Shown here: piece by piece, positions 40,754-59,433 of the stretch
How positions within the stretch are numbered: position 1 is the first letter of the stretch
How the letters are laid out: each line of letters starts with the position of its first letter
Source of the DNA: a virus
Lineage: Duplodnaviria; Caudoviricetes
DNA: 64,000 bases
Strand: one strand, 5' to 3'
Virus record (IMG/VR): IMGVR_UViG_3300027730_000005
The notes under the pieces: generated by a model
The model's input: only the letters and a program-made list of their open reading frames with translations
Told to the model about the DNA's origin: nothing
Databases searched by the model: none
Translations under genes and position numbers: made by a program

Positions 40754-41194
40754 ATGAAAATAAAAATAATAACAATAGCCTTGCTTGTAGTAACAATACA
40801 GGTCAGGGCTGCCGAACTGGTACATCAGTTCAATTCATCTGCATTCAACGGTGTTGGATACAGCAGTCATGTTCTCACAATTGAACAACTAGAATCACAA
40901 CGTCGAAAAGCCTTGGCCGATGCTGCCAAATCCGCTGCTGACCAAGCCATTAGAGATGCCAAGAATACCAATCTGGCCAAATTCTTAGTCAATGTTGAAA
41001 GTCGTATCTATGCCCAACTCTCAAAACAGTTAGCCGATGCTATGTTTTCTGAAGGCGGTGAATCTGGCCAACTGAATTTTCAAGGTACCAACATCTCCTG
41101 GCTGAAAACTGCCACCGAAGTCACACTAACCATTATGGAAAATTCAGGCAATCGCACTGAAATCACTGTACCCATCGGGAGTTTTGCATTTTGA
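40754..41194 (+). CDS. csgF: Curli assembly CsgF-like protein
   Basis: Signal peptide, then ELVHQFNSSAFNG, aligning with the CsgF N-terminus (FQFRNPNFGG). Confidence 0.7.
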   Translation: MKIKIITIALLVVTIQVRAAELVHQFNSSAFNGVGYSSHVLTIEQLESQRRKALADAAKSAADQAIRDAKNTNLAKFLVNVESRIYAQLSKQLADAMFSEGGESGQLNFQGTNISWLKTATEVTLTIMENSGNRTEITVPIGSFAF

Positions 41195-42006
41195 TCCGAA
41201 CTGTGCTATCACTGTTGTTGGCTACTGTACTCACTGGTTGTGCCGCAGTGCTGTGGGACACTGAACGTGAAGAGCCTCGTGTGATCCCCAGGGTAAGGCT
41301 GTTGGATTCTATACCTGCATTGGATGGCCCTCCTATGCCTATTGCTGTGTATGGATTTTTAGACAAAACTGGTCAAATGAAATCCAATGATCGACTAGCC
41401 CTATTTTCCAAAGCAGTAACCCAAGGTGCCGAAGTGTTTCTGATCAAGGCTCTGCAAGACACAGGCCGTTGGTTTACTGTAGTGGAACGAGTGGGGTTAG
41501 ACAATCTCATCAAAGAACGCCAACTCATACGTAATCAACGCGAAGTGTATGAAGGCAAAGATGCCAAACCCTTGCGGCCCATGCTGGTGGCTGGTATTAT
41601 GATTGAAGGTGGCATTGTGGGTTACGATACCAATTTACGTTCAGGTGGCGCCGGAGCCAGAATCATGGGAATTGGCAATTCCGTGCAATATCGAGTGGAC
41701 GAAGTGGTTGTGGCCTTGAGGTTTGTGTCGGTGCATACAGGCGAAGTGTTAATCAATACTGCTGTGAGTAAGACCATTTACAGCACTGCTCAAAATGCAG
41801 GCATGCTGAGGTTTGTGGATGTGGGCACACGAGCTGTGGAATTAGAAGCTGGTGCTGCACTCAACGAACCTACAACCTACGCTGTTCGAGTGGCTATTGA
41901 ACAGGCTGTGTATGAAACTATCATCACAGGTGAACGTCGAGGACTATGGCGTTTTAAAACTACAATGAGCGTGTCTGGGGAAAACTCGGGCATAGATAAA
42001 AAATGA
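41191..42006 (+). CDS. csgG: Curli secretion channel lipoprotein CsgG
   Basis: Lipobox LTGC; IAVYGFLDKTGQ.K, FSKAVTQGA, WFTVVER.GLDNL.KERQLIR. Confidence 0.9.
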   Translation: MIRTVLSLLLATVLTGCAAVLWDTEREEPRVIPRVRLLDSIPALDGPPMPIAVYGFLDKTGQMKSNDRLALFSKAVTQGAEVFLIKALQDTGRWFTVVERVGLDNLIKERQLIRNQREVYEGKDAKPLRPMLVAGIMIEGGIVGYDTNLRSGGAGARIMGIGNSVQYRVDEVVVALRFVSVHTGEVLINTAVSKTIYSTAQNAGMLRFVDVGTRAVELEAGAALNEPTTYAVRVAIEQAVYETIITGERRGLWRFKTTMSVSGENSGIDKK

Positions 42007-42602
42007 TAACAAAAACTCTCAAAAGTGTAATATTATTGGCAGTTATGCTGTGGTCCACAGCATGGGCCAATGAACTGTATATGGAACAAAGTGATGACTC
42101 GTCCACCATAACCATCACACAGGACGGTGCCAGCAATGAAATTGGCACACAACTGTCTCCGGTGTTTATTGGTGGAGGCTCAAATACTGTAAATATTGAA
42201 CAAATTGGTGCCGGCAACCAACTACAGTTTACAGTAAATGGTGCCACCACTGCTATGACCATTGAACAACACGGTAGCAACAATATCGGTACAGTGACTT
42301 GCGGTACCACTGCCAATGCCAGTTGCAGTGGCAGTACCATTTGGCAATTTATCACTGGTGATGACAACAACATCAGTCAGCTTCTAGGTGCCGGCGGAAA
42401 TCATACCAGCAAGATCACTGTGACTGGGGACACCAACACAGTGAGTCATACCAGTACCAACACAGGCGCTGTGAGTATGCAATACCTAGTAACTGGGAAC
42501 AGTAATTCAATTTCAGTGACCACTGCAGGTACCACAGCCAAGACTCTCAATGCAACTACTACTGGCAATAGCAATACTGTTACTATCGTTCAGACCAACT
42601 GA
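42003..42602 (+). CDS. Curlin-like (CsgA/CsgB) repeat protein
   Basis: Signal peptide AWA; about seven Q/T-x-G-x-x-N repeats at roughly 22-aa spacing. Confidence 0.7.
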   Translation: MITKTLKSVILLAVMLWSTAWANELYMEQSDDSSTITITQDGASNEIGTQLSPVFIGGGSNTVNIEQIGAGNQLQFTVNGATTAMTIEQHGSNNIGTVTCGTTANASCSGSTIWQFITGDDNNISQLLGAGGNHTSKITVTGDTNTVSHTSTNTGAVSMQYLVTGNSNSISVTTAGTTAKTLNATTTGNSNTVTIVQTN

Positions 42603-44086: not shown

Positions 44087-44411
44087 ACTTATCAACAAAT
44101 ACGGTTTCCCCATTGTGGCTGCTGGAGGTCTTGGGTATCTCATATATTACGTATGGGTATGGGCTACCAAAGAAATCAAGCCTGTGCTGAGTGAAGCCAA
44201 TAGCACACTGATTGCGTTGATCGATCGTATCCGTATGCTTGACAACGATCTTATTAGACTGCAACAAAAAGTCAATGTCACACTGCAATTGCGTGGCAAA
44301 GTCATTGAAAGCGAACGTGTGCTAGCACAACAGAAATTTGATTCCGAAGCTGAAACAAAATTCAAGAAGGCAGCGGCGGAAGACTCCGACACTGCTGCTG
44401 GCAAAAGTTAA
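44073..44411 (+). CDS. Small single-TM protein (paralogue of 43631-43912)
   Basis: GFPIVAAGGLGYL...LDNDLIR. Confidence 0.7.
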   Translation: MDLAELINKYGFPIVAAGGLGYLIYYVWVWATKEIKPVLSEANSTLIALIDRIRMLDNDLIRLQQKVNVTLQLRGKVIESERVLAQQKFDSEAETKFKKAAAEDSDTAAGKS

Positions 44412-45112
44412 TGACATTACTCATAGCCACGCTGTTGATGACACATGCTACTATAGTTTGTGTTACACTTTATCTACACCGCAGTCAAACTCATAGATCA
44501 GTAGAATTCCATCCGCTTGTGGCGCATGGCATGCGCCTTTGGCTGTGGCTGTCAACTGGTATGGTCACACGCCAATGGGTTGCTATACATCGTTCTCATC
44601 ATCGGCACAGTGATCAATCTGACGATCCGCACTCGCCCCATGTGTGGGGTATTTGGCGTGTGCTGTTTGGTGGTGCGTGGCTTTATAATCAAGCTGCTCA
44701 AGATAGTGCATTAGTTAAGCAATACGGAGTAGGCACTCCCGACGACTGGATTGAACGTAACCTGTATACTGCACATAGCCGCCTTGGTATTCTTTTGATG
44801 CTGATTATAGATTTATTGTTATTTGGGCCTTGGGGACTTATGGTGTGGGTCGTACAAATGCTATGGGTACCTTTTCACGCCGCCGGAGTTATTAATGGAT
44901 TAGCACATTGGTGGGGTTATAAAAATGGTCCCACCAAGGATCAAAGTCGTAACATCAGTCCCTGGGGAATATGGATTGGTGGCGAGGAATTGCATTCTAA
45001 TCATCACCAAGAACCAGCTAGTGCTAAATTAAGTCGCAAGTGGTTTGAATTTGACGAAGGTTGGATGTGGATCTGTATTTTACGTTTTTTTAAACTTGCC
45101 AAAGTTCGTTAA
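44411..45112 (+). CDS. Membrane fatty-acid (delta-9-like) desaturase
   Basis: His boxes HRSQTH, HRSHH, LHSNHH. Confidence 0.9.
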   Translation: MTLLIATLLMTHATIVCVTLYLHRSQTHRSVEFHPLVAHGMRLWLWLSTGMVTRQWVAIHRSHHRHSDQSDDPHSPHVWGIWRVLFGGAWLYNQAAQDSALVKQYGVGTPDDWIERNLYTAHSRLGILLMLIIDLLLFGPWGLMVWVVQMLWVPFHAAGVINGLAHWWGYKNGPTKDQSRNISPWGIWIGGEELHSNHHQEPASAKLSRKWFEFDEGWMWICILRFFKLAKVR

Positions 45113-47161
45113 TTATTTTTCGGTCGCTATCCATTCACCATTCCAATTGGACGGTAAGGCTTGCCGCTTCATAAAGTCGCAACGTTCCGTCCATATCTTA
45201 TAATACTTGTCCATCTGTCCGCCAAAGTTTCCCTTTAGATCTGCACACATTACAGCAGCTTCGTCAAACTTTTTCTGTCGATACAAGGCATGCATCGCTT
45301 CGTGTTGTGCTTTGTCTTTAGAGTAATCTGTGCCTTTGGTGCGTAGAGCTGTATAGATCAAGTCTGCTACAGTTTTACCCTTTGGTTGTAAGTTATCTAG
45401 CAACAAATACAAGAAGTCATCTTTGGTTCTATTATATGTTTCGGCACCAATAATACATAGCACACCATATGCTTTGCAACGTGCTTCCAAACGTGCAGCG
45501 GTGCTCACCATGTCACCCAAGATGTCATAGCTGTGTCTTTCTGTTGATCCCATTTCACCAATAAAGCCAATACCACTGTTACAACCCCAACCCATTGCAG
45601 CAGGTGGTAATCCCTGTGCTTCCATAACTTTGGTATACTCGTCTACCTTGTCTAGCATTTCAAGTCCTACCTTAACAATTGTTCGTGCGTGGTCAGGATC
45701 TTCAATAGGAGCACCGTGTATGTGCATTGATGCATCGCCCACATACTTGATGACCATACCTTGGTTGTCTAGCATTGGCTGACTAATGGCATCCATATAA
45801 CCGTTCATGTACTTGCCAAGTCCGGCAACGTCATCGCCATAGTATTCACCAATAGGAGTAAATCCACGCAAGTCGCTGAACATAACTGATACGTCTTTAC
45901 GCACACCTCGCTTGATTAAGTCTGGATCTTTTTGTAGTAACTCTACTACTTCTTTGGAGCAGTAACCGGCAAACTGTTTCTTTATGGCTTGCTTTTGCAA
46001 GAACTCGCTTAGAAACTTGATACCATAGGCATGCAGAGCGACCAAAGTTGTGCCAACTGCAAAGGCAGTAGCATCGAATAAGAATAAAAAATTGCTGTAA
46101 GCAAGAATGCTGCCAGCAATACCGCCGCCCACAATAACCAAAACTGTCGCCATACCTGCATAAGTATACCTCGTCAAAAACAACAATGTTAGGCCAGCCA
46201 GAGCCATGGCCAATATCTCAGCACCGTCGGCCCAATCAGGCCGCACAATGCGACGTTCTGAAGTCAGGGTATCTAGTACAGCGGCCTGCAGATAATGCGG
46301 GAAGACCTCACCTCTTGCAGTGGCCACTGGGTTGTTGAGTCCCCGGGCGGATAAGCCCACAATGACGATTCCACCTTGGAAATCTTTTGGCAAACTAGCC
46401 AAGGAGTGTTCTTGCGGTCGGGATGACCAATCCACCCAGATTCTACCAAGACTGTCTGTTGGGATTTTTCCAAACTGTGGAATTCTAACTGCTTCAATAA
46501 TTCCTGAGTTGACTCGAACTTGGAAAGAGGGGTCGCCTGCTGCAACTCGTAGGGTTTCAAGACTGATAGAGGGGTAGATCTGTTGTCCAACACTGACGAC
46601 CATGGGGATTCTGCGAACGACACCGTCCAGTTCGGGCACAGTGTTAACAATACCAATACCAGCTGCTGTTTCATTGATCTTCCTTTCGTTGGGTTGAATT
46701 GCCCGGTATGGTATGCCCGGTTCACCTGAACCAATCACGCTTACACCAGGTCTAAATGGCACAGTGTTGGTGCGCACTGGGTCATTGGTTGCGGTGTGTG
46801 GCAACACCACAGGATATTTTTGTAAGAGTTGCGCCAATTGCTGATCTTGACCTGCACGATCTGCGTCGGGCATGAACACATTAAACACCACAAGACCTGC
46901 ATTACGCTGATAGAGATCTTGAATTATTTGGGCGTATTGGCCCCGGGGAAAAGGAAACTGTCCACGCTGCTCAATGGCCTGATCATCAATGTTCACTAGA
47001 TGTACGCCAGAGCTGGCCGTGGTTGGTGTGCTGGTTATCACTGTGTCAAAGTAACGCAGCCTAACACTTTCTACTAAGGCTGGATCTGCGATTCTAATGC
47101 CAACCATTATGGCTAGAGTTAGCAGCGCAGTCCAAGGGGATAACAGTAATTTTTTTACCAC
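45113..47161 (-). CDS. CHASE2-domain class III nucleotidyl cyclase
   Basis: TM-CHASE2-3TM-cyclase; FSDLRGFT, KYVGDA, YDILGDMVSTAARLE; start GTG 47161 or TTG 47164. Confidence 0.9.
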   Translation of the reverse strand: MVKKLLLSPWTALLTLAIMVGIRIADPALVESVRLRYFDTVITSTPTTASSGVHLVNIDDQAIEQRGQFPFPRGQYAQIIQDLYQRNAGLVVFNVFMPDADRAGQDQQLAQLLQKYPVVLPHTATNDPVRTNTVPFRPGVSVIGSGEPGIPYRAIQPNERKINETAAGIGIVNTVPELDGVVRRIPMVVSVGQQIYPSISLETLRVAAGDPSFQVRVNSGIIEAVRIPQFGKIPTDSLGRIWVDWSSRPQEHSLASLPKDFQGGIVIVGLSARGLNNPVATARGEVFPHYLQAAVLDTLTSERRIVRPDWADGAEILAMALAGLTLLFLTRYTYAGMATVLVIVGGGIAGSILAYSNFLFLFDATAFAVGTTLVALHAYGIKFLSEFLQKQAIKKQFAGYCSKEVVELLQKDPDLIKRGVRKDVSVMFSDLRGFTPIGEYYGDDVAGLGKYMNGYMDAISQPMLDNQGMVIKYVGDASMHIHGAPIEDPDHARTIVKVGLEMLDKVDEYTKVMEAQGLPPAAMGWGCNSGIGFIGEMGSTERHSYDILGDMVSTAARLEARCKAYGVLCIIGAETYNRTKDDFLYLLLDNLQPKGKTVADLIYTALRTKGTDYSKDKAQHEAMHALYRQKKFDEAAVMCADLKGNFGGQMDKYYKIWTERCDFMKRQALPSNWNGEWIATEK

Positions 47162-47168
47162 CAAATAT

Positions 47169-51636: not shown

Positions 51637-51909
51637 TTACCAACCAGATTTTTCTCGGGCCTCAATTTCAAGAGGATTAGCGTGATAGCCAAATCGCAGA
51701 TTATACCAAAGATACACTAAAGTGAATTTTACTGCGCCTAGCCGTTGAATTTGTTCAATGTGTACAGCTTCGTGATCTAAAAGTTTTTGATACTGTGGAC
51801 CCACTCGATCTGGACGAAGATACACAGTTTGCCAAGGCATGGTTATAGCACCATAATCAAATGTTTCTAGAAACCAACGAATTGGACCTGTTGCTGTTTT
51901 TGTTTTCAT
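51637..51909 (-). CDS. Small HEXXH zinc-peptidase-like protein
   Basis: LLDHEAVHIEQ...NPLEIEA; TAAATA 5 nt before ATG. Confidence 0.65.
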   Translation of the reverse strand: MKTKTATGPIRWFLETFDYGAITMPWQTVYLRPDRVGPQYQKLLDHEAVHIEQIQRLGAVKFTLVYLWYNLRFGYHANPLEIEAREKSGW

Positions 51910-51926
51910 AAAAATATTTATCGTGA

Positions 51927-52124
51927 TCATTCAAAAGAAAACTTACTACTGCATCCCAAATCCTGTTCAGAGTTTTTGTCAATATCTTTAGAGATAATGT
52001 CATACACTTGTGTGTATGTGTGGGTAATTTTGTCTAGCTGTTGTTCGGTAACCAAATTATTATCTTCCAAAATAGCTAAGTCTTTAGCTAAGTTTTCTTG
52101 TAATTTTTTTAGTTGGTTGACCAT
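51927..52124 (-). CDS. Small hypothetical protein
   Basis: ORF track; TATAAATA upstream. Confidence 0.55.
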   Translation of the reverse strand: MVNQLKKLQENLAKDLAILEDNNLVTEQQLDKITHTYTQVYDIISKDIDKNSEQDLGCSSKFSFE

Positions 52125-52132
52125 GTATATAT

Positions 52133-53134
52133 TTATACAGGATTTTTGTCAACCAAATTGTCGCGGAATATTTCCCAAGCTCGTTGCCATGACCATTTTT
52201 GGCTACCTTCTAATACTCGTTCTCTATTCAATACAATACAGCGATGAACCGCAGTGGCTAAATCTTCTTCCAAGTATCCAGTCACTCCCTGCTCAACCAC
52301 ATCCTCGGGACCTTGCACAGGATATGCTGCAACCGGTGTGCCACAGGCCATTGCTTCAATCATTACAATACCAAATGTTTCCCACTGACTAGGGAATACA
52401 AACACATCGGCCTGTCTATAGTAGTCGGCCAATTCTTTACCAGTTTTATATCCTACAAATTCAACATCAGGGTACTGGTGTCGATATGTTTCCAACATAG
52501 GTCCATCACCCACCATGACTTTACAATAACCTGGGTAGTCTAGCTTAAAGAAATCTTCTAAGTTTTTTTCTTTAGAAACTCTACTAACACACAACAGAGT
52601 GCCAGTGTTAGTATAAGAATTGCTAGGATAGAAAATATCTCTATCAACACCTCTTGTCCAAGATATAATATCTCCATCAAATCCATGATCACGCAACTCC
52701 TTTACCATTGAGTCTGTAGTGGTCAGCACTTTACCACTGTGTTTGTGAAACCAACGCACTAAAGGCCAAGTAAGGACCTCAGGTATTCCAAACAGCTTCT
52801 TAATTCCTTCTGGAAATTTAGTATGATAAGCAGTATTGTAGCAATAACCGTGTTTGTCAAGATATTGTCTAGCACACAGACCCACAGGACCTTCGGTGGC
52901 GATGTGGATATGATCCGGATTGATCTCCTCAAGTATCTGGCCCATCTTCCAGGGAAAGGCAATCTTGACTTCGTTGTAGCCAGGGCAATCAACATAGCGG
53001 AACCGCCCGGGATCAAGATATACAACACGATAGTTGTCGCGAATCGCACACGTCTCAATATTTTTGTAGGTCGTGGCCACACCATTGATCTGCTCCGGTA
53101 AATTATCTGTGACTATCAGTATTGTTTTTGACAT
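52133..53134 (-). CDS. GT4 glycosyltransferase, Agt-like (DAG glycosyl/glucuronosyltransferase)
   Basis: ILIVTD...Q.NGV, HIATEGP.G, YHT.FPE, W.RGVD, EKNL, GDGP, DVFVFPS..ETFG.V..EA.A.G.PV. Confidence 0.85.
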   Translation of the reverse strand: MSKTILIVTDNLPEQINGVATTYKNIETCAIRDNYRVVYLDPGRFRYVDCPGYNEVKIAFPWKMGQILEEINPDHIHIATEGPVGLCARQYLDKHGYCYNTAYHTKFPEGIKKLFGIPEVLTWPLVRWFHKHSGKVLTTTDSMVKELRDHGFDGDIISWTRGVDRDIFYPSNSYTNTGTLLCVSRVSKEKNLEDFFKLDYPGYCKVMVGDGPMLETYRHQYPDVEFVGYKTGKELADYYRQADVFVFPSQWETFGIVMIEAMACGTPVAAYPVQGPEDVVEQGVTGYLEEDLATAVHRCIVLNRERVLEGSQKWSWQRAWEIFRDNLVDKNPV

Positions 53135-53289
53135 TTGCCTTCTACCTTAAAACTTTCAAACTTTAACTGCCACTTCATTGTGGCCAGTGCTTGTTCGCAT
53201 ATGTGTTGACTGGGAAATTGTAGTTCTATTCTCCCTGGAGTGTCTTTGGGATTGTTTATGTGAACTGCTATCAATATCATCAACCACAT
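53116..53289 (-). CDS. Hidden overlapping 57-aa protein (MWLMILIAVH...GKCQKQY)
   Basis: Own SD AAGGAG at 7 nt; hydrophobic N-terminus; two Cys; overlaps both neighbours. Confidence 0.65.
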   Translation of the reverse strand: MWLMILIAVHINNPKDTPGRIELQFPSQHICEQALATMKWQLKFESFKVEGKCQKQY

Positions 53290-54043
53290 CATCTCGCTCC
53301 TTGGACCAAGTTACTATTTCCCATTTACCATCATGATGTTCTACCAATGCGGTACAACTTTCTACCCAGTCACCGTCGTTCATATAAATGATACCGTCTA
53401 TGTCTTTGATCTCTGCGTGGTGTATGTGACCACAGATCACGCCATCAAACCCACGCTTTTTACAATAGCCTGCTAGATTCTTTTCAAATTGAAATATAAA
53501 ATCCACAGCTTTCTTTACTCTATGCTTTAGATACTTACTTAAACTCCAATAACCAAATCCCATCTTATGTCGGCCCCAGTTAAACTTACTGTTGAGATTG
53601 AGTACAAAATCGTATAATTTGTCTCCCAAGAATCCCAGCCAAGGAGCTAGTCGTGTAATGCCATCGAACAAATCACCGTGAATCACTAAGTAGTGACGAC
53701 CGTCTACACCTATATGTTCAAATTGATTGTGTATTTCTACTAGACCAAAACTAAACCCATATGGTAACATAGGTCTAAGAAACTCATCATGGTTACCAGC
53801 TATGTAGATAACTCTAGTACCACGTTTAGCATGACCAAGTACTCTACGAACTACATTAGTATGACTTTGTTTCCAACGCCATTTGTTTTGCTGTATTCTC
53901 CAAGCATCAATGATATCACCCACGAGATACAATGTATCGCAGGTGTTGTGCTTGAGGAAATTATTCAATGCTTCGGCTTTGCAATCTTTGGTGCCAAGAT
54001 GTACATCACTGATTGCTATGGTTCTATAAGTTTTGGTTGTCAT
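53156..54043 (-). CDS. plcP: PlcP-like (LpxH2-type) metallophosphoesterase/phospholipase C
   Basis: ISDVHLG, YLVGDIIDAW, AGNHDEFLR, HGDLFD, YWSLS, VICGHIHHA, NDGDWVESCTA. Confidence 0.8.
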   Translation of the reverse strand: MTTKTYRTIAISDVHLGTKDCKAEALNNFLKHNTCDTLYLVGDIIDAWRIQQNKWRWKQSHTNVVRRVLGHAKRGTRVIYIAGNHDEFLRPMLPYGFSFGLVEIHNQFEHIGVDGRHYLVIHGDLFDGITRLAPWLGFLGDKLYDFVLNLNSKFNWGRHKMGFGYWSLSKYLKHRVKKAVDFIFQFEKNLAGYCKKRGFDGVICGHIHHAEIKDIDGIIYMNDGDWVESCTALVEHHDGKWEIVTWSKERDDVVDDIDSSSHKQSQRHSRENRTTISQSTHMRTSTGHNEVAVKV

Positions 54044-54089
54044 AGTTGTTGTATTTGTTATTATAATGCAAACCCACAAATTAAAAACT

Positions 54090-54111
54090 AAAAAAGGACC
54101 AGTTGGTCCTT
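54090..54111 (-). terminator. Intrinsic terminator after pstS
   Basis: AAGGACC-AACT-GGTCCTT-TTTT. Confidence 0.75.
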
Positions 54112-54155
54112 AGTACTGGTTACGAGTTCCAGCCACACTCTATCGTTGTGTGCGG

Positions 54156-55160
54156 TTATTTAATCTGTGTCCAAACTCGCTGACGAATCTGATCTTGCAA
54201 CACTGTGGGCAAGTGTACATAATCCAATTCTTCACTCATGTTCTTGCCGTTCTTGAATGCCCAATCAAAGAATTTCAACGCTTCATCACTGGCGGCTTTG
54301 TTAGTAGGATTTTTGTACATGATAATAAAACTTGCTGAACTCACTGGCCAGGCGTTGAGATTCTTTTGATCCACAATGCTGAGTCCCATACCCGGAACTG
54401 AGAACCAATCAGCACCGTCTGCCGCAGCGGCAAATGTTACGTCATCTGGACTTACATATCGTCCTGCGTTGTTCTGGAGTTGTAGAAATGTCATGTTGTT
54501 CTTTTTAACATACGCATATTCCACATAACCAATTGATCCTTTGATACGGTTTACATTAGCAGCAACTCCTTCGTTGCCTTTACCACCCACTGAACTGGCA
54601 GCAGGCCATTTAACAGCAGCACCTCGGCCCACACGCTGTAGCCACTCGGGACTTACAGTAGCAAGATAGTCTGTCCAATTAAAAGTTGTACCCGAACCAT
54701 CAGCACGGTGTACCACGGTGATTTCTGTATTAGGCAAGGTTTTACCTGGGTTCAATGCTGTTAATTTTGGGTCATTCCACTTAGTAATGTTACCCATGAA
54801 CACTTCCGCCATAACTGGTCCAGTGATCTTTAGTTCTCCGGGCTTGATACCATCTAAGTTAACAATAGGCACAGTACCGCCAATGATGGCAGGGAATTGT
54901 ATCTGTCTCTGTTTGTCTAGGTCTTCACCCTTAACTGGAGCATCGGTGGCACCAAAGTCTACAGTTTTGGCATTGATTTGTCTAATGCCACCTGAACTGC
55001 CAATTGATTGATAGTTCATGCCTTTACCAGTGGCCTTTTTATATGCTTCGGCCCATTTAGCATAGATTGGATATGGAAATGTAGCGCCAGCGCCGGTAAT
55101 TTCCTGTGCTGTTGCAGAAAATGCAACAATTGCAAGTAGCATGGTAATGAGTTTTTTCAT
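54156..55160 (-). CDS. pstS: Phosphate ABC transporter substrate-binding protein
   Basis: Signal peptide; GAGATFPYP, YQSIGSSGG, HRADGSGTT, GKGNEGV. Confidence 0.95.
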   Translation of the reverse strand: MKKLITMLLAIVAFSATAQEITGAGATFPYPIYAKWAEAYKKATGKGMNYQSIGSSGGIRQINAKTVDFGATDAPVKGEDLDKQRQIQFPAIIGGTVPIVNLDGIKPGELKITGPVMAEVFMGNITKWNDPKLTALNPGKTLPNTEITVVHRADGSGTTFNWTDYLATVSPEWLQRVGRGAAVKWPAASSVGGKGNEGVAANVNRIKGSIGYVEYAYVKKNNMTFLQLQNNAGRYVSPDDVTFAAAADGADWFSVPGMGLSIVDQKNLNAWPVSSASFIIMYKNPTNKAASDEALKFFDWAFKNGKNMSEELDYVHLPTVLQDQIRQRVWTQIK

Positions 55161-55202
55161 CAAAATTTCCTTTAGTTGATACATTTATTTAAGCATACAA
55201 GT

Positions 55203-55220
55203 ATTACAATTATGTTACAG
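55203..55220 (-). promoter_or_regulatory. Putative Pho box upstream of pstS
   Basis: CTGTAAC-ATAA-TTGTAAT (7-4-7), 10-11 nt before TTAAAT/TAAATA. Confidence 0.6.
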
Positions 55221-56239: not shown

Positions 56240-56785
56240 TTACTCACCGTTGTTGTTACCCAGTAATTGTAACACATTTGGCAATAGATCTCTAGTGATA
56301 TTGGCAAGTTTTTGGATGGGTTCGGCAAGATCGGTATGATGATCTACTATTACCCATTGTTTACCGCTGCTGCGTATGGCTTCAGCTAATAGTCCAACAT
56401 AGTTGGTTCTACGTTCTGTTGATTTGGTTTCTAGATCAAATCCAATCATAAGAATCACATCAGCTACACTTGCTACCAAATGAGCAGCAATTATGTCGTC
56501 AACCGAATCTACAGAAAAATCAAACTCTCCACCAAATGCCCGCACACCTTTGGGTGCCTTTAACTGTTCATAAACTGTTTGTTGGATGTAAAGATTGCAT
56601 ATCTTTGCATATCCTTGTGCCACTAACTTGGCAGCTTGCTCGGTGTCCCAGCACACCACATTGTCGGTATTATATCCTCGTTGGGTTCGCCAGCTGCCCC
56701 AGATTGGTGCAAGATTTTTTATGGCCTGAACCGGTGTCGTGGGCGGCAACATGGTATTTTCGGCAAATAACCAGGCTATGTTCAT
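56240..56785 (-). CDS. Hypothetical protein (Rossmann-like fragment)
   Basis: AAHLVASVADVILMIGFDL; ATGA-coupled. Confidence 0.6.
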   Translation of the reverse strand: MNIAWLFAENTMLPPTTPVQAIKNLAPIWGSWRTQRGYNTDNVVCWDTEQAAKLVAQGYAKICNLYIQQTVYEQLKAPKGVRAFGGEFDFSVDSVDDIIAAHLVASVADVILMIGFDLETKSTERRTNYVGLLAEAIRSSGKQWVIVDHHTDLAEPIQKLANITRDLLPNVLQLLGNNNGE

Positions 56786-57699
56786 GACTCTCTGTGCAGG
56801 TCTAAGGTGACACAATGAAACCCGCCGCCTAATGTTCGACTATGGCGAAGTTGCATAGGTACAACTGTGAATTGATTCTTTTCCAGGAAATCAATTAACA
56901 TGGGTTGATTCTGATCTACAACTACTGTGTATGGATTTACTACCAGCATATTCAATGCTATCCATTTAGATGCATATGGATATTGGAAGAACCCTTGTTC
57001 TTCCACGTGATTGCAATAGATGACTTCCCAGTCTTTTAACACTCGTGGTAAGTTTCCTGGAGTGACTCTACTGCCGTTGACTAATACCAATCCTTCACGT
57101 AACGGAACTATGGTTGAATCAATATGTACTCCTGCGTAGAAATTAACCAATTCAATATCTACTGTTGGAAATTGATTACATAACCAATCATATGCAGCGC
57201 GATTGCCTGATGCAGATTCTAAGAAAATCCATTTGTCATTTAGTCGTGCTATGTTGGCAGCATCCAGAGTCATACCCACATGTCTGGGCATGAATAGATA
57301 ATTATCAGCAGCATCTGCTATATCACGATAGCATTCAATTTCCATATCTCTGCAAGGATACATCATGGCTGGATTCACAATGGTATTACCGTATACCAAC
57401 AATCGATCTCTAGGACAATAGTTATACATGCCATCGTGTTCTTGAAAATCAAGATCATCCGGGCGAAACACTTCTACATTCAATGATCGTAAAACCCCAG
57501 CTAATGCATCAAGGTCTTCATTGGCTTCTTTAATGATCCAGTCTGGCACTGGTCCCGACGGTAATGGAGTTTCTTTCCATAACGTTCTTTCACTTTCGCT
57601 GCGGAACACTGGATCTTTTGTTGGCCAATTGGCATGGTCAGCACGCCCTACTACTACGGATCGCAATGTATCCCATTCATTGAAACTGTGTATCTTCAT
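56782..57699 (-). CDS. Amidinotransferase (glycine/inosamine-phosphate type)
   Basis: NEWD.L..VVVG, CPRD, HIDST, TLGGGFHCVTLD. Confidence 0.88.
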   Translation of the reverse strand: MKIHSFNEWDTLRSVVVGRADHANWPTKDPVFRSESERTLWKETPLPSGPVPDWIIKEANEDLDALAGVLRSLNVEVFRPDDLDFQEHDGMYNYCPRDRLLVYGNTIVNPAMMYPCRDMEIECYRDIADAADNYLFMPRHVGMTLDAANIARLNDKWIFLESASGNRAAYDWLCNQFPTVDIELVNFYAGVHIDSTIVPLREGLVLVNGSRVTPGNLPRVLKDWEVIYCNHVEEQGFFQYPYASKWIALNMLVVNPYTVVVDQNQPMLIDFLEKNQFTVVPMQLRHSRTLGGGFHCVTLDLHRES

Positions 57700-58217
57700 A
57701 CGGTTCCGGTAAGTTGTAATGTATATCTATCAGTTTGTCCCATGTTAGCTGCCAAGTGTAAAAAATCATCACGCCAGCTTACCCAATCACCGGCACGCCA
57801 GCCAGTAAACGGTTGTCCATTCATTTCCAAGTAATGCCCACTGGCCCAGTCCTCCATGAATACAATGGTGCGTACCACATTGTGGGTGGTTTCTAATCCA
57901 TGTATCAGCTTGAATCTATCATATGTATCTCTATGTGCAGGCAATACACTTCCTGGAGGCATACGATAAAAACTCCAACCAAATCGTTCAAATGGAAATA
58001 TTGTTTGGAACGGTGTTATCCAGTCTGGTTCGACTTGTTTCATGTCATACATGTCACCGGTGAATCTAGTTTGTGTATAACCTAATCTGCGCCACTCACG
58101 CAATGCGTAAGTGTCATTGAACTGCTGGTTGATGTAGTTGAGATCGCGATGTCGTAGATCCCACCAAGGATCTACATGCCCTTGCGCCCAAGCATTATTT
58201 GTTGCGAGTGTTTCCAT
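57696..58217 (-). CDS. 2OG-Fe(II) oxygenase/cupin-fold protein
   Basis: PPGSVLPAHRD...HLAANMG...RYTLQLTG (HxD...H). Confidence 0.75.
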   Translation of the reverse strand: METLATNNAWAQGHVDPWWDLRHRDLNYINQQFNDTYALREWRRLGYTQTRFTGDMYDMKQVEPDWITPFQTIFPFERFGWSFYRMPPGSVLPAHRDTYDRFKLIHGLETTHNVVRTIVFMEDWASGHYLEMNGQPFTGWRAGDWVSWRDDFLHLAANMGQTDRYTLQLTGTV

Positions 58218-59433
58218 AATGGACCACGGTTAGTCCTTCGACATTGGATAGTTTACGCCATGGATCAATGATCACTGATCCTTTGGGTATTTCACAATAA
58301 GGTTGTGTTTCAGGTTGATCACCGGTGTATTCATATGTGATTTTACGATTGTGTGCCCACAAAATAACAGCAGGGCCTGCTAGCTCTGAGATTACTTCTT
58401 TAGGATCATCTGCCAATGGGTCAAGATACCTGACACTAAACCCTGCTTCTTTGATATAGTGACCAACCAATGTAGAATATGATCCAATACAATACGGAAC
58501 ATCGGGCTTGTATGCTTTACCATGAATCACTATGCTCATTCCAAGTTGTTTGGCATACTTTACTAAAAACAATGCCAGATTCTTTGCTTGAATTTCTCGA
58601 GCATGCATCACAGTATCAAACAAGTCGTATCCAATGTCATACTCCTTGGCCAACCAACGCAAAGCAATGTTGTCGCGTGGGTGGCAGGCACCTGCATCAC
58701 CCATACCTGCAGTCATGTATTTTGGCCCCATAATACGCATGGTGCTACGTGCTAATGCATTTGTAACAACGTCCACATTGATGTGACCAATTTTCATAGC
58801 AAAGTCTTGCACCATGTTTACCAATCCTACTTTGGCTGAAATAAATGTGTTGTAGAAGATCTTAACTGCTTCGCATTCGTCCCAGGTACCAATTTCGTAA
58901 CGTGGATCGTTTTGCATCACAGTGTCGTAGAGATCCTTAAGTTCACCCGCAATGCCATTCCAGTCACCGTCTTCAGTACCAATCATAATCATTTCAGGAT
59001 TAACCATATCCCACTTTACAGATCCCATGGCAATGAGATAAGGGTTGTAAAGGAACTGATGTATTGGATCTAGCAATGGCACAAAATTTCTACGTGTGGT
59101 TCCTGGTAACACTGTACTGATCAATACCACTTTCTTGGAACTACGGGCATGCTGGTTGATTTTGTGAATAGCATCAATCACTGCGTCGTGCCCAAAATCT
59201 CGAGGTTCCATATGGCTTGATGGCACAGAGCCATCATACCCATCAGCATGAGGAGTTGGTACAGCAATAAAAATCCATTCGCTTTCGTTGATCAATTCAT
59301 CAATATCGCAAACTTTTACTGAGTCACTGGTTCGTGGGTAAATATCATAGCCTCTGACTTCATGCTTCTCAGCCATGACTTCAGCGCAATCCAATCCCAG
59401 TTTTCCAATGCCAATAAAACCAATTTTCTTCAT
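58195..59433 (-). CDS. ugd: UDP-glucose/GDP-mannose dehydrogenase family protein
   Basis: GFIGIGKLG, FIAVPTP, ISTVLPGT, KIFYNTF, GACHPRD. Confidence 0.88.
   Translation of the reverse strand: MKKIGFIGIGKLGLDCAEVMAEKHEVRGYDIYPRTSDSVKVCDIDELINESEWIFIAVPTPHADGYDGSVPSSHMEPRDFGHDAVIDAIHKINQHARSSKKVVLISTVLPGTTRRNFVPLLDPIHQFLYNPYLIAMGSVKWDMVNPEMIMIGTEDGDWNGIAGELKDLYDTVMQNDPRYEIGTWDECEAVKIFYNTFISAKVGLVNMVQDFAMKIGHINVDVVTNALARSTMRIMGPKYMTAGMGDAGACHPRDNIALRWLAKEYDIGYDLFDTVMHAREIQAKNLALFLVKYAKQLGMSIVIHGKAYKPDVPYCIGSYSTLVGHYIKEAGFSVRYLDPLADDPKEVISELAGPAVILWAHNRKITYEYTGDQPETQPYCEIPKGSVIIDPWRKLSNVEGLTVVHYGNTRNK

Follow-up and report, generated by a model that had tools for sequence, protein, structure and literature searches.

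A candidate phage-borne version of PlcP-Agt lipid renovation, joined with pstS, in a T4-like phage from fresh water

Phosphorus often limits lake bacteria and the phages that build their DNA inside them, and the known phage answers to phosphate shortage act on uptake (pstS, phoA). Does the locus described here turn to the host's own membrane lipids? It lies in a Caudoviricetes virus record, IMG/VR record IMGVR_UViG_3300027730_000005. The stretch of DNA that was analysed, called the window in the following, is 64,000 nucleotides long and comprises bases 60996-124995 of the 153,873-bp record. CheckV completeness of the record is 44%, and the full phage genome may therefore be about 350 kb. A preliminary description, made from the sequence alone, had placed pstS, a metallophosphoesterase and a family 4 glycosyltransferase (GT4) as three head-to-tail open reading frames (ORFs) on the minus strand (54156-55184, 53156-54079 and 52133-53134), and all three were found there. 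As a module of three genes this was incomplete, as a conserved, overlapping 57-codon gene had been left out. In our judgement the locus is probably a phage-borne version of the bacterial PlcP-Agt lipid renovation, joined with pstS in one phosphate-starvation unit. The features of the locus are the following.

52133..53134, minus strand: Agt-type GT4, predicted diacylglycerol glucosyl/glucuronosyl transferase (374 bits against the profile of plcP-linked GT4s)
53116..53289, minus strand: overlapping 57-codon gene with AAGGAG ribosome-binding site, encoding a small beta-beta-alpha-beta protein with two invariant Cys
53156..54043, minus strand: PlcP-type (LpxH2-like) metallophosphoesterase, predicted phospholipase C (387 bits against the PlcP-type profile)
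54060..54065, minus strand: TATAAT, possible own -10 element of the phosphoesterase gene (a consensus match only, function putative)
54094..54153, minus strand: structured 3' region of pstS, with two hairpins kept in relatives and then a terminator-like hairpin with a T-run (54111-54094)
54156..55160, minus strand: pstS, periplasmic phosphate-binding protein with signal peptide (the listed ORF reaches 55184)
55186..55191, minus strand: TAAATA, -10-like element 11 nt downstream of the box, which resembles a T4-type late-promoter core too
55203..55220, minus strand: Pho-box-like direct repeat CTGTAAC-ATAA-TTGTAAT, with two 7-nt half-sites and an 11-bp period (10/14 match)

The phosphoesterase matches the Pfam family Metallophos, its motif set (DxH, GDxxD, GNH[DE], H and GHxH) is intact, and the metal-ligand residues D13, H15, D43, N84, H85, H122, H206 and H208 are invariant in 38-45 diverse homologues. 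The motifs that had been quoted for it (SDVHLG, GDIIDAW, GNHDEFLR, YWSLS, CGHIHHA and GDWVESCTA) are all present in the translation. Two equivalog models of LpxH gave 40.2 bits (cut-off 134) and 31.2 bits (cut-off 190.35) on this protein. The LpxH model was also run on five bacterial genomes with a PlcP-like gene; it found a separate true LpxH in four of them (183-336 bits) and reported two of the PlcP-like genes, at 41-46 bits. It found no LpxH in the Azospirillum genome. In a tree of 106 rows, five LpxH proteins (that of E. coli and the four from those genomes) stood apart from the rest with 100% support and a branch length of 5. Conversely, a profile of 50 bacterial agt-linked PlcP-like enzymes gave 386.8 bits for the window protein, 348.7 for the homologue in Pelagibacter phage Mosig and 18-37 for true LpxH. 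Grouping with LpxH had been named beforehand as the outcome that would speak against a PlcP; the protein did not group in this way, and the tree and the reciprocal hidden Markov model scores agree. By its sequence, the phosphoesterase is of the PlcP type and not an LpxH. The phage proteins form one clade (100%), sister to Mosig and one bacterial metagenome-assembled genome (MAG; 96%), and this whole group nests within the proteobacterial PlcP-like family of the same tree. Of all bacterial rows, the MAG (L092) stands closest to the phages and Mosig. It was considered as mis-binned phage DNA, an explanation we rejected, as it looks bacterial (55% GC and a response regulator).

The ATG at 54043 is probably the start of the phosphoesterase (295 amino acids) rather than the TTG at 54079, because homologues are 293-295 amino acids long. 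An AlphaFold2 model of the protein has a predicted local distance difference test score (pLDDT) of 83.5 overall and below 50 at residues 256-289. It comprises a phosphoesterase core with an inserted helical hairpin, and the catalytic fold spans residues 1-255. The last ~40 codons encode a tail that is predicted to be disordered, and carry no selection signal in that frame. The nearest solved folds are LpxH structures (17-20% identity, target-normalised TM-score 0.56-0.64), and the modelled fold would fit a lipid-directed relative of LpxH. With LpxH the model appears to share the calcineurin-like metallophosphoesterase core and an inserted helical lipid-binding cap; unlike LpxH, the protein stands in a separate clade and in a different genomic context, and scores under the LpxH cut-offs.

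The GT4 has 333 amino acids and the domains PF13439 (Glyco_transf_4) and PF00534 (Glycos_transf_1). Its quoted motifs (ILIVTD..Q.NGV, HIATEGP.G and YHT.FPE) were likewise all recovered in the translation. That it is Agt-like, rather than like other GT4s, was borne out by both tree and profile. A tree of 100 rows unites the phage GT4s (100%, stem 1.28) and places them among the GT4s whose genes directly follow plcP in bacteria; the 27 other GT4 paralogues in it, which come from three of the same bacterial genomes, are set apart with 99% support. The window protein scored 373.9 bits against a profile of plcP-linked GT4s, and the paralogues a median of 32.5. One paralogue is an exception: a second Agt-like GT4 of Limnohabitans (L180, G003, C19:105838-106308), which is not linked to plcP, reached 261 bits and recalls the unlinked Agt2 of P. 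aeruginosa. The SAR11 enzyme GTcp is 334 amino acids long, has the catalytic pair His104 and Asp256, needs Thr162, Arg163 and Trp320 for activity, carries the motifs GRVAxEKN and FPSxTDTFG, and loses >90% of its activity upon the exchange D256E (bioRxiv 10.1101/2021.03.25.437072). The phage GT4 keeps H104 (invariant), W159-T160-R161-G-V-D and W316 (invariant in phage and bacterial members), the positions being paired with those of GTcp by motif and not by alignment to GTcp itself. Its UDP-sugar motif reads SRVSKEKN, in which R, E, K and N of GRVAxEKN are kept and Ser stands for Gly and for Ala. The module is real, and by sequence its parts belong to the PlcP and Agt families, with a departure from the Agt signature at one position.

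Gene order was compared in two sets of loci. The bacterial counts refer to the 80 nearest bacterial species representatives (alpha-, beta- and gammaproteobacteria; 48-59% phosphoesterase identity), taken from a profile scan with a 9-sequence alignment; the phage counts refer to the best 80 of at least 591 IMG/VR contigs that encode a relative of the phosphoesterase, at 76-86% identity. A full-length GT4 homologue (37-44% identity) lies directly downstream of the plcP-like gene in 49-50 of the bacterial loci. The order plcP then agt is known as the 'type 2' arrangement, and the SAR11 agt found in it makes monoglucosyl- and glucuronosyl-diacylglycerol (PMC4796936). In a Paraburkholderia locus (L167) the order is metallophosphoesterase-GT4-DagK, the layout of the plcP-agt-dagK operon characterised in B. 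cenocepacia (PMC13691135). A survey of synteny in related phages, which the preliminary description had suggested, gave a matching picture: a glycosyltransferase follows directly in 73-75 of the 80 loci. This partner is a 239-amino-acid GT2 in 54 loci and a GT4 in 19-21. The gap between the two genes is 13-109 nt for all 54 GT2s and for 19 of the 20 measured GT4s (mode 22 nt; one GT4 at 897 nt), and in the window the GT4 starts 21 nt past the phosphoesterase stop. Upstream of the phosphoesterase, by comparison, the genes of the 80 loci fall into more than 25 unrelated groups. The pair thus moves between contexts as a pair, which is strong evidence that the phosphoesterase and the glycosyltransferase work together. 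The GT2 partner (L015-L091; e.g. L018:5910-6629) matches PF00535 and the GT21 Pfam model Glyco_transf_21; none of the 80 bacterial plcP loci yielded a homologue. Processive diacylglycerol glycosyltransferases (Pgt) have been assigned to GT21 (bioRxiv 10.1101/2021.03.25.437072).

The phosphoesterase is widespread. At E <= 1e-10, more than 8000 protein clusters matched it and about 7600 matched the GT4; among the best 120 clusters, identities were 77-92% for the phosphoesterase and at least 77% for the GT4. Some of the contigs that bear the cassette are 350-525 kb long, with phage gene content. Beyond the phage group, the next phosphoesterase clusters are at most 53% identical; the gene belongs to an old phage lineage and is not a recent capture.

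Between the two enzyme genes, the 57-codon gene overlaps the tail of plcP and the start of the GT4 gene. An ORF of 56-59 codons is present in this frame in 74 of the 80 related phage loci, whichever glycosyltransferase comes next. Codon-position entropies in its frame are 0.75 / 0.48 / 1.07 (54 distinct sequences), a pattern which indicates purifying selection and which is inverted in the phosphoesterase frame. Over the overlap, mean pairwise amino-acid identity is 63% in the 57-codon frame and 37% in the phosphoesterase frame. The modelled protein (pLDDT 92.1) is a beta-beta-alpha-beta fold. Its N-terminus was considered as a signal peptide or membrane anchor, and this was rejected as the model makes it a core beta-strand. 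Matches in the Atlas were only unnamed clusters, mostly viral, of 56-60 amino acids, and neither the 80 bacterial plcP loci nor Mosig nor Synechococcus phage S-SRM01 showed a homologue. A fold search gave PurS/PII-like split beta-alpha-beta folds with a best Z of 7.3, which is within the noise range of the library. When the 57-residue protein was modelled in complex with residues 1-256 of the phosphoesterase, the score was 0.17 (mark 0.34).

How is the locus connected to phosphate? PstS exceeds the cut-offs of two models, NCBIfam PRK10918 (equivalog; 389.5 bits, cut-off 339) and TIGR00975 (367 bits, cut-off 205), and matches the phage family phrog_5385. It is 36-37% identical to cyanophage PstS and 49% to enterobacterial PstS, and the gene is of the proteobacterial type. 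The N-terminus, read directly from the sequence, is MKKLITMLLAIVAFSATAQE. Homologues are 334-335 amino acids long and begin with MKK. The start is probably at 55160 (MKKL..., with an AAGGAA ribosome-binding site) and not at the ATG at 55184, because this ATG directly follows the -10 element and because promoter geometry and homologue N-termini favour the former.

A Pho box ahead of pstS, a terminator behind it and the lack of a box at plcP had all been stated before, and inspection of the sequence agreed on each. The repeat ahead of pstS matches 10 of the 14 positions of CTGTCAT-N4-CTGTCAT, which is the E. coli consensus, and a match of this quality is expected by chance in 4.6% of random 150-nt windows. 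The composite of box and TAAATA occurs only once in the 153.9-kb record (both strands), namely ahead of pstS. It has the geometry of PhoB-dependent promoters, with 7-nt repeats, an 11-bp period, a -10 element about 10 nt on and the box in place of the -35 element (consensus geometry: PMC8528852). We therefore regard the repeat at 55220-55203 as a putative PhoB-dependent promoter box. The composite also precedes pstS in all six related loci in which pstS lies directly upstream of the phosphoesterase.

Directly 3' of the pstS stop, two hairpins (54116-54153) are kept in six phages (the window, L013, L050, L059, L061 and L072), and the stem CTGG..CCAG of the window reads CCGG..CCGG in L050, where both sides are altered. 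The two conserved hairpins could be an element of mRNA stability or processing that sets the ratio of pstS to plcP. The fold of the whole region 54094-54153 is no stronger than that of shuffled sequence (z = -1.24), and termination may therefore be partial.

Ahead of plcP no Pho box was found in the window, the best match being 7 of 14 positions. In L013 and L059 the aligned site is an intact Pho box; the plcP-proximal copy of the window looks decayed and now carries TATAAT. Among the relatives with pstS directly upstream, L050, L061 and L072 have no separate plcP box, and L013 and L059 have both boxes. In the family as a whole, the composite TGT[AC]A[CT]-N5-TGT[AC]A[CT], followed by TAAATA 6-26 nt on, stands just before the phosphoesterase start in 55 of the 80 related loci (39 of 60 distinct sequences). 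In the phages the half-site recurs as TGTAAY or TGTCAY, and L022 and L070 are among the relatives with an intact plcP-proximal box. Elsewhere in the related loci the composite occurs 23 times in 1.49 Mb (both strands), each time on the coding strand. For 15 of these a downstream ORF was called, which was pstS in seven cases and one recurring gene in eight. For the family, the evidence for starvation control is good; in this phage such control of plcP is indirect, and plcP would be reached by read-through past the pstS hairpins or from a promoter of its own that is probably PhoB-independent. The recurring third gene behind the composite encodes an acidic, alanine-/valine-rich protein of ~150-230 amino acids that starts with MRLEDLAARL... 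(examples are L070:5707, L029:6919, L015:6634, L086:4103 and L078:4226); a gene of this type was not found in the 154-kb record of this phage.

Phosphate starvation as the trigger is suggested by box and TAAATA, which pstS and plcP share in relatives, and by the Mosig homologue, which adjoins pstS. The analysis itself establishes the protein families, the order of the genes, and the cis element and cassette as conserved; the following steps are a proposal. In a phosphate-starved cell, host PhoB would bind the repeat at 55220-55203 and drive transcription from TAAATA. As the layout suggests, pstS would be made in excess, and part of the transcript would pass the hairpins, or start at TATAAT (54065), and reach plcP, the 57-codon gene and the GT4 gene. 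As the latter three overlap or adjoin one another, their translation is probably coupled. Going by family membership, the phosphoesterase would cut the phospho-head group off host glycerophospholipids at the cytoplasmic side and leave diacylglycerol. The GT4 would turn this into monoglycosyl- or glucuronosyl-diacylglycerol with UDP-sugars of the host, and the bilayer would stay intact. The released head groups would need a phosphatase, presumably that of the host, to give phosphate for phage nucleotide synthesis. We estimate, roughly, that no more than a few 350-kb genomes could be built with the phospholipid phosphorus of a small freshwater cell, a gain that would be real, if modest. Another possibility is simply that an infected cell with this pathway needs less phosphorus.

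The bacterial counterparts are the PlcP of S. meliloti and Phaeobacter MED193, PlcP and Agt/GTcp of SAR11 HTCC7211 and the Agt Atu2297 of A. tumefaciens, and further PA3219 with PA3218 and PA0842 in P. aeruginosa and BCAL2364-2366 in B. cenocepacia. The phage cassette shares with these operons the same two families in the same order, with the GT4 a few nucleotides downstream of plcP, and the same kind of Pho-box control (PMC4796936, PMC8528852); like them it is distinct from LpxH, and its GT4 keeps the diacylglycerol-binding and catalytic residues except for Asp -> Glu. It differs from them in that it is carried by a phage, in phage-only clades on long stems with at most 59% (phosphoesterase) and 44% (GT4) identity to any bacterial species representative. 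Moreover, the phage has the 57-codon gene, a Glu in the TDTFG motif, pstS in the unit and the composite of box and TAAATA, and it has no dagK. With the cyanophage genes pstS and phoA, which are under host PhoBR control, it shares a pstS behind a Pho box on a T4-like phage, and the family phrog_5385. Unlike that set, which serves uptake and the use of dissolved organic phosphorus, this module would turn to the membrane lipids of the host.

Several points weigh against this reading. The main sequence-level doubt on the GT4 is Glu252: the protein reads FPSQWETFG, with Glu where the SAR11 enzyme has Asp256. Glu is found at this position in 19 of 21 phage members (Asp in two) and in 7 of 50 bacterial plcP-linked members, among them Limnohabitans and Rhizobacter (Asp in the other 43), and we know of no Glu-bearing bacterial plcP-linked GT4 that has been characterised. 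In addition, an N-terminal Trp and a Pro, both invariant among the bacterial enzymes, are exchanged in the phage GT4, whose stem in the tree is long (1.28). Identity to the closest bacterial proteins is only 48-59% for the phosphoesterase and 37-44% for the GT4, which leaves room for shifts in substrate; between characterised members, identities are 46-47% for PlcPs and 35-41% for Agts (PMC8528852). As proxies for characterised PlcP served Pseudomonas homologues (57-59%) and the syntenic Paraburkholderia plcP-agt-dagK locus (53%), and the proposed link to PlcP and Agt is drawn from synteny, published SAR11 residues and profiles of uncharacterised bacterial homologues. As plcP has no Pho box of its own here and a terminator-like hairpin follows pstS, starvation control may be indirect or lost. 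Lastly, PlcP yields phospho-head groups and not phosphate, and no phage phosphatase was found next to the PlcP gene.

A different benefit of a real PlcP/Agt pair is the best of the alternatives, to which we give a minor share of the probability and which partly overlaps with the starvation reading. The pair might change receptors or porins and so act against superinfection, sustain the viability of the starving host, or make new membrane cheaper in phosphorus. In bacteria, lipid renovation alters membrane-protein content and the interactions with phages and predators (PMC9804370, PMC9938194, PMC9457565). Envelope genes are often found near the cassette, such as a fatty-acid desaturase (in 18 of the 80 loci and in this window) or a porin (in L003), and the few genome equivalents of phosphorus that were roughly estimated for the membrane point in the same direction. 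However, Pho-box control in common with pstS ties expression to phosphate starvation and not to infection as such.

Far less likely is that the substrates lie elsewhere, with the phosphoesterase acting as a phospholipase or lipid phosphatase in pre-lysis membrane weakening or diacylglycerol signalling, and the GT4 glycosylating lipopolysaccharide (LPS), protein or DNA. Glu252, the N-terminal changes and the long stem of the GT4 would allow for a shift in specificity, in most relatives the partner of the phosphoesterase is an unrelated GT2, and phage glycosyltransferases have been read as LPS modifiers in the pelagimyophage literature (PMC7029224). Yet the GT4 is nested in the plcP-linked GT4s and not with LPS or other paralogues, and it keeps the residues of the SAR11 enzyme that are linked to diacylglycerol binding. 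The GT2, too, matches Glyco_transf_21, the family of Pgt, and a glycosyltransferase of either kind is kept beside the phosphoesterase. The weakest alternative, a lipid A-pathway LpxH with an LPS glycosyltransferase as an auxiliary pair that modifies LPS, has in its favour the naming of homologues as UDP-2,3-diacylglucosamine hydrolase at JGI and GenBank, the placing of lpxH (K03269) in LPS biosynthesis by virome surveys (PMC9611531, PMC10653327) and LpxH as the nearest solved fold, but we consider it highly improbable in view of scores far under both LpxH cut-offs, the fully supported split in the tree, the low identity to the LpxH structures, reciprocal profile scores of 387 against 18-37 bits, and bacteria that have the PlcP-like family beside a separate true LpxH or, as in Azospirillum, no LpxH.

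It is tempting to go further than the starvation unit and to speculate that freshwater T4-like giant phages possess a phage-specific lipid renovation of three genes (PlcP, the new 57-residue protein, and GT4 or GT2), which is switched by host PhoB, turns host phospholipid into phage nucleotides and sugar lipids, possibly also in hosts without the pathway, and employs the 57-residue protein as a new subunit or regulator that has no bacterial counterpart. To this wider proposal we give somewhat less than an even chance. If the reading is true, a phage pathway fed by the membrane of the host would add a new class to the auxiliary metabolic genes, and a common one. The "lpxH" entries of virome surveys would need to be re-read and would count viral lipid remodelling under phosphorus stress, and viral infection would be tied to a glycolipid signal that is used as a marker of phosphorus stress. 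The cassette would also offer a compact set of three genes, including a small protein that has no assigned role, that is open to testing.

Two isolated phages carry PlcP-type genes that are annotated as LpxH, both without a glycosyltransferase downstream. Gene 00120 of Mosig encodes a protein 48% identical to that of the window and adjoins pstS; QPX48289 of S-SRM01 is 36% identical. No lipid-remodelling role for these genes is described in PMC9004378 and PMC7029224, and no mention of the gene was found in the literature on the Melnitz/Mosig pelagimyophage group. Literature that pairs plcP with phage or virus concerns phage attachment or therapy and not phage genes; none was found that joins 'plcP' with 'auxiliary metabolic gene', and no paper describing the phage module was found. 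In Mosig, a SAR11 phage and part of a culturable phage-host pair, pstS and the PlcP-type gene are divergent neighbours (L001, record 93031-95047), and an unrelated small ORF with a hydrophobic segment overlaps the end of the latter. The gene of S-SRM01, a freshwater cyanophage, scores 195 bits against the PlcP-type profile and lies among psbA, hli and peroxiredoxin genes (L002, record 210536-211240).

The phage itself encodes T4-type tail-fibre and baseplate proteins, and its closest isolated relatives are Methylophilales phage Melnitz and the pelagimyophages. Near DNA matches in isolated phages were not found, and a distant DNA search returned only a 149-nt match to Mosig. Near-identical DNA is present in lake-water and freshwater metagenome runs, possibly including the source sample. 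Among the runs listed for the 3.1-kb stretch and the phosphoesterase gene, no RNA runs were found; all were DNA from lakes or fresh water.

The preliminary description had further proposed that a ugd homologue at 58195-59433 could supply UDP-glucuronate. This found no support: no ugd homologue was found within ~5 kb of the cassette in the 80 related loci. The protein scores 134.9 bits against a family cut-off of 189.8 and is a divergent nucleotide-sugar dehydrogenase. We rejected the gene as a part of the module on the grounds of this score, of its absence near the cassette in relatives and of its own operon. At 56240-59433 (minus strand) it is coupled with genes for an Asp/Arg-hydroxylase-like oxygenase and a 305-amino-acid amidinotransferase-like protein ending in GGGFHC, a set of genes that resembles a modification pathway of its own more than a part of the lipid module.

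Two genes downstream of the GT4 gene, in the same orientation and after an 8-nt gap behind the GT4 stop, an ORF of 97 amino acids with a HEAVH (HExxH) motif is found (51637-51930, minus strand), and the transcription unit may continue into it. The fatty-acid desaturase gene of the window lies at 44411-45112 (plus strand). In the 18 related loci that have a homologue, it is within 5 kb of the cassette, and in L003 and L004 it adjoins porin-pstS-plcP-GT4; through the desaturase, these phages could act on membrane lipids in a second way. At 41191-42602 (plus strand) and 45113-47164 (minus strand), CsgG and a curlin-repeat protein are encoded beside a large adenylate/guanylate-cyclase-like protein, which is 45% identical to its counterpart in Melnitz and 35% to that in HTVC008M.

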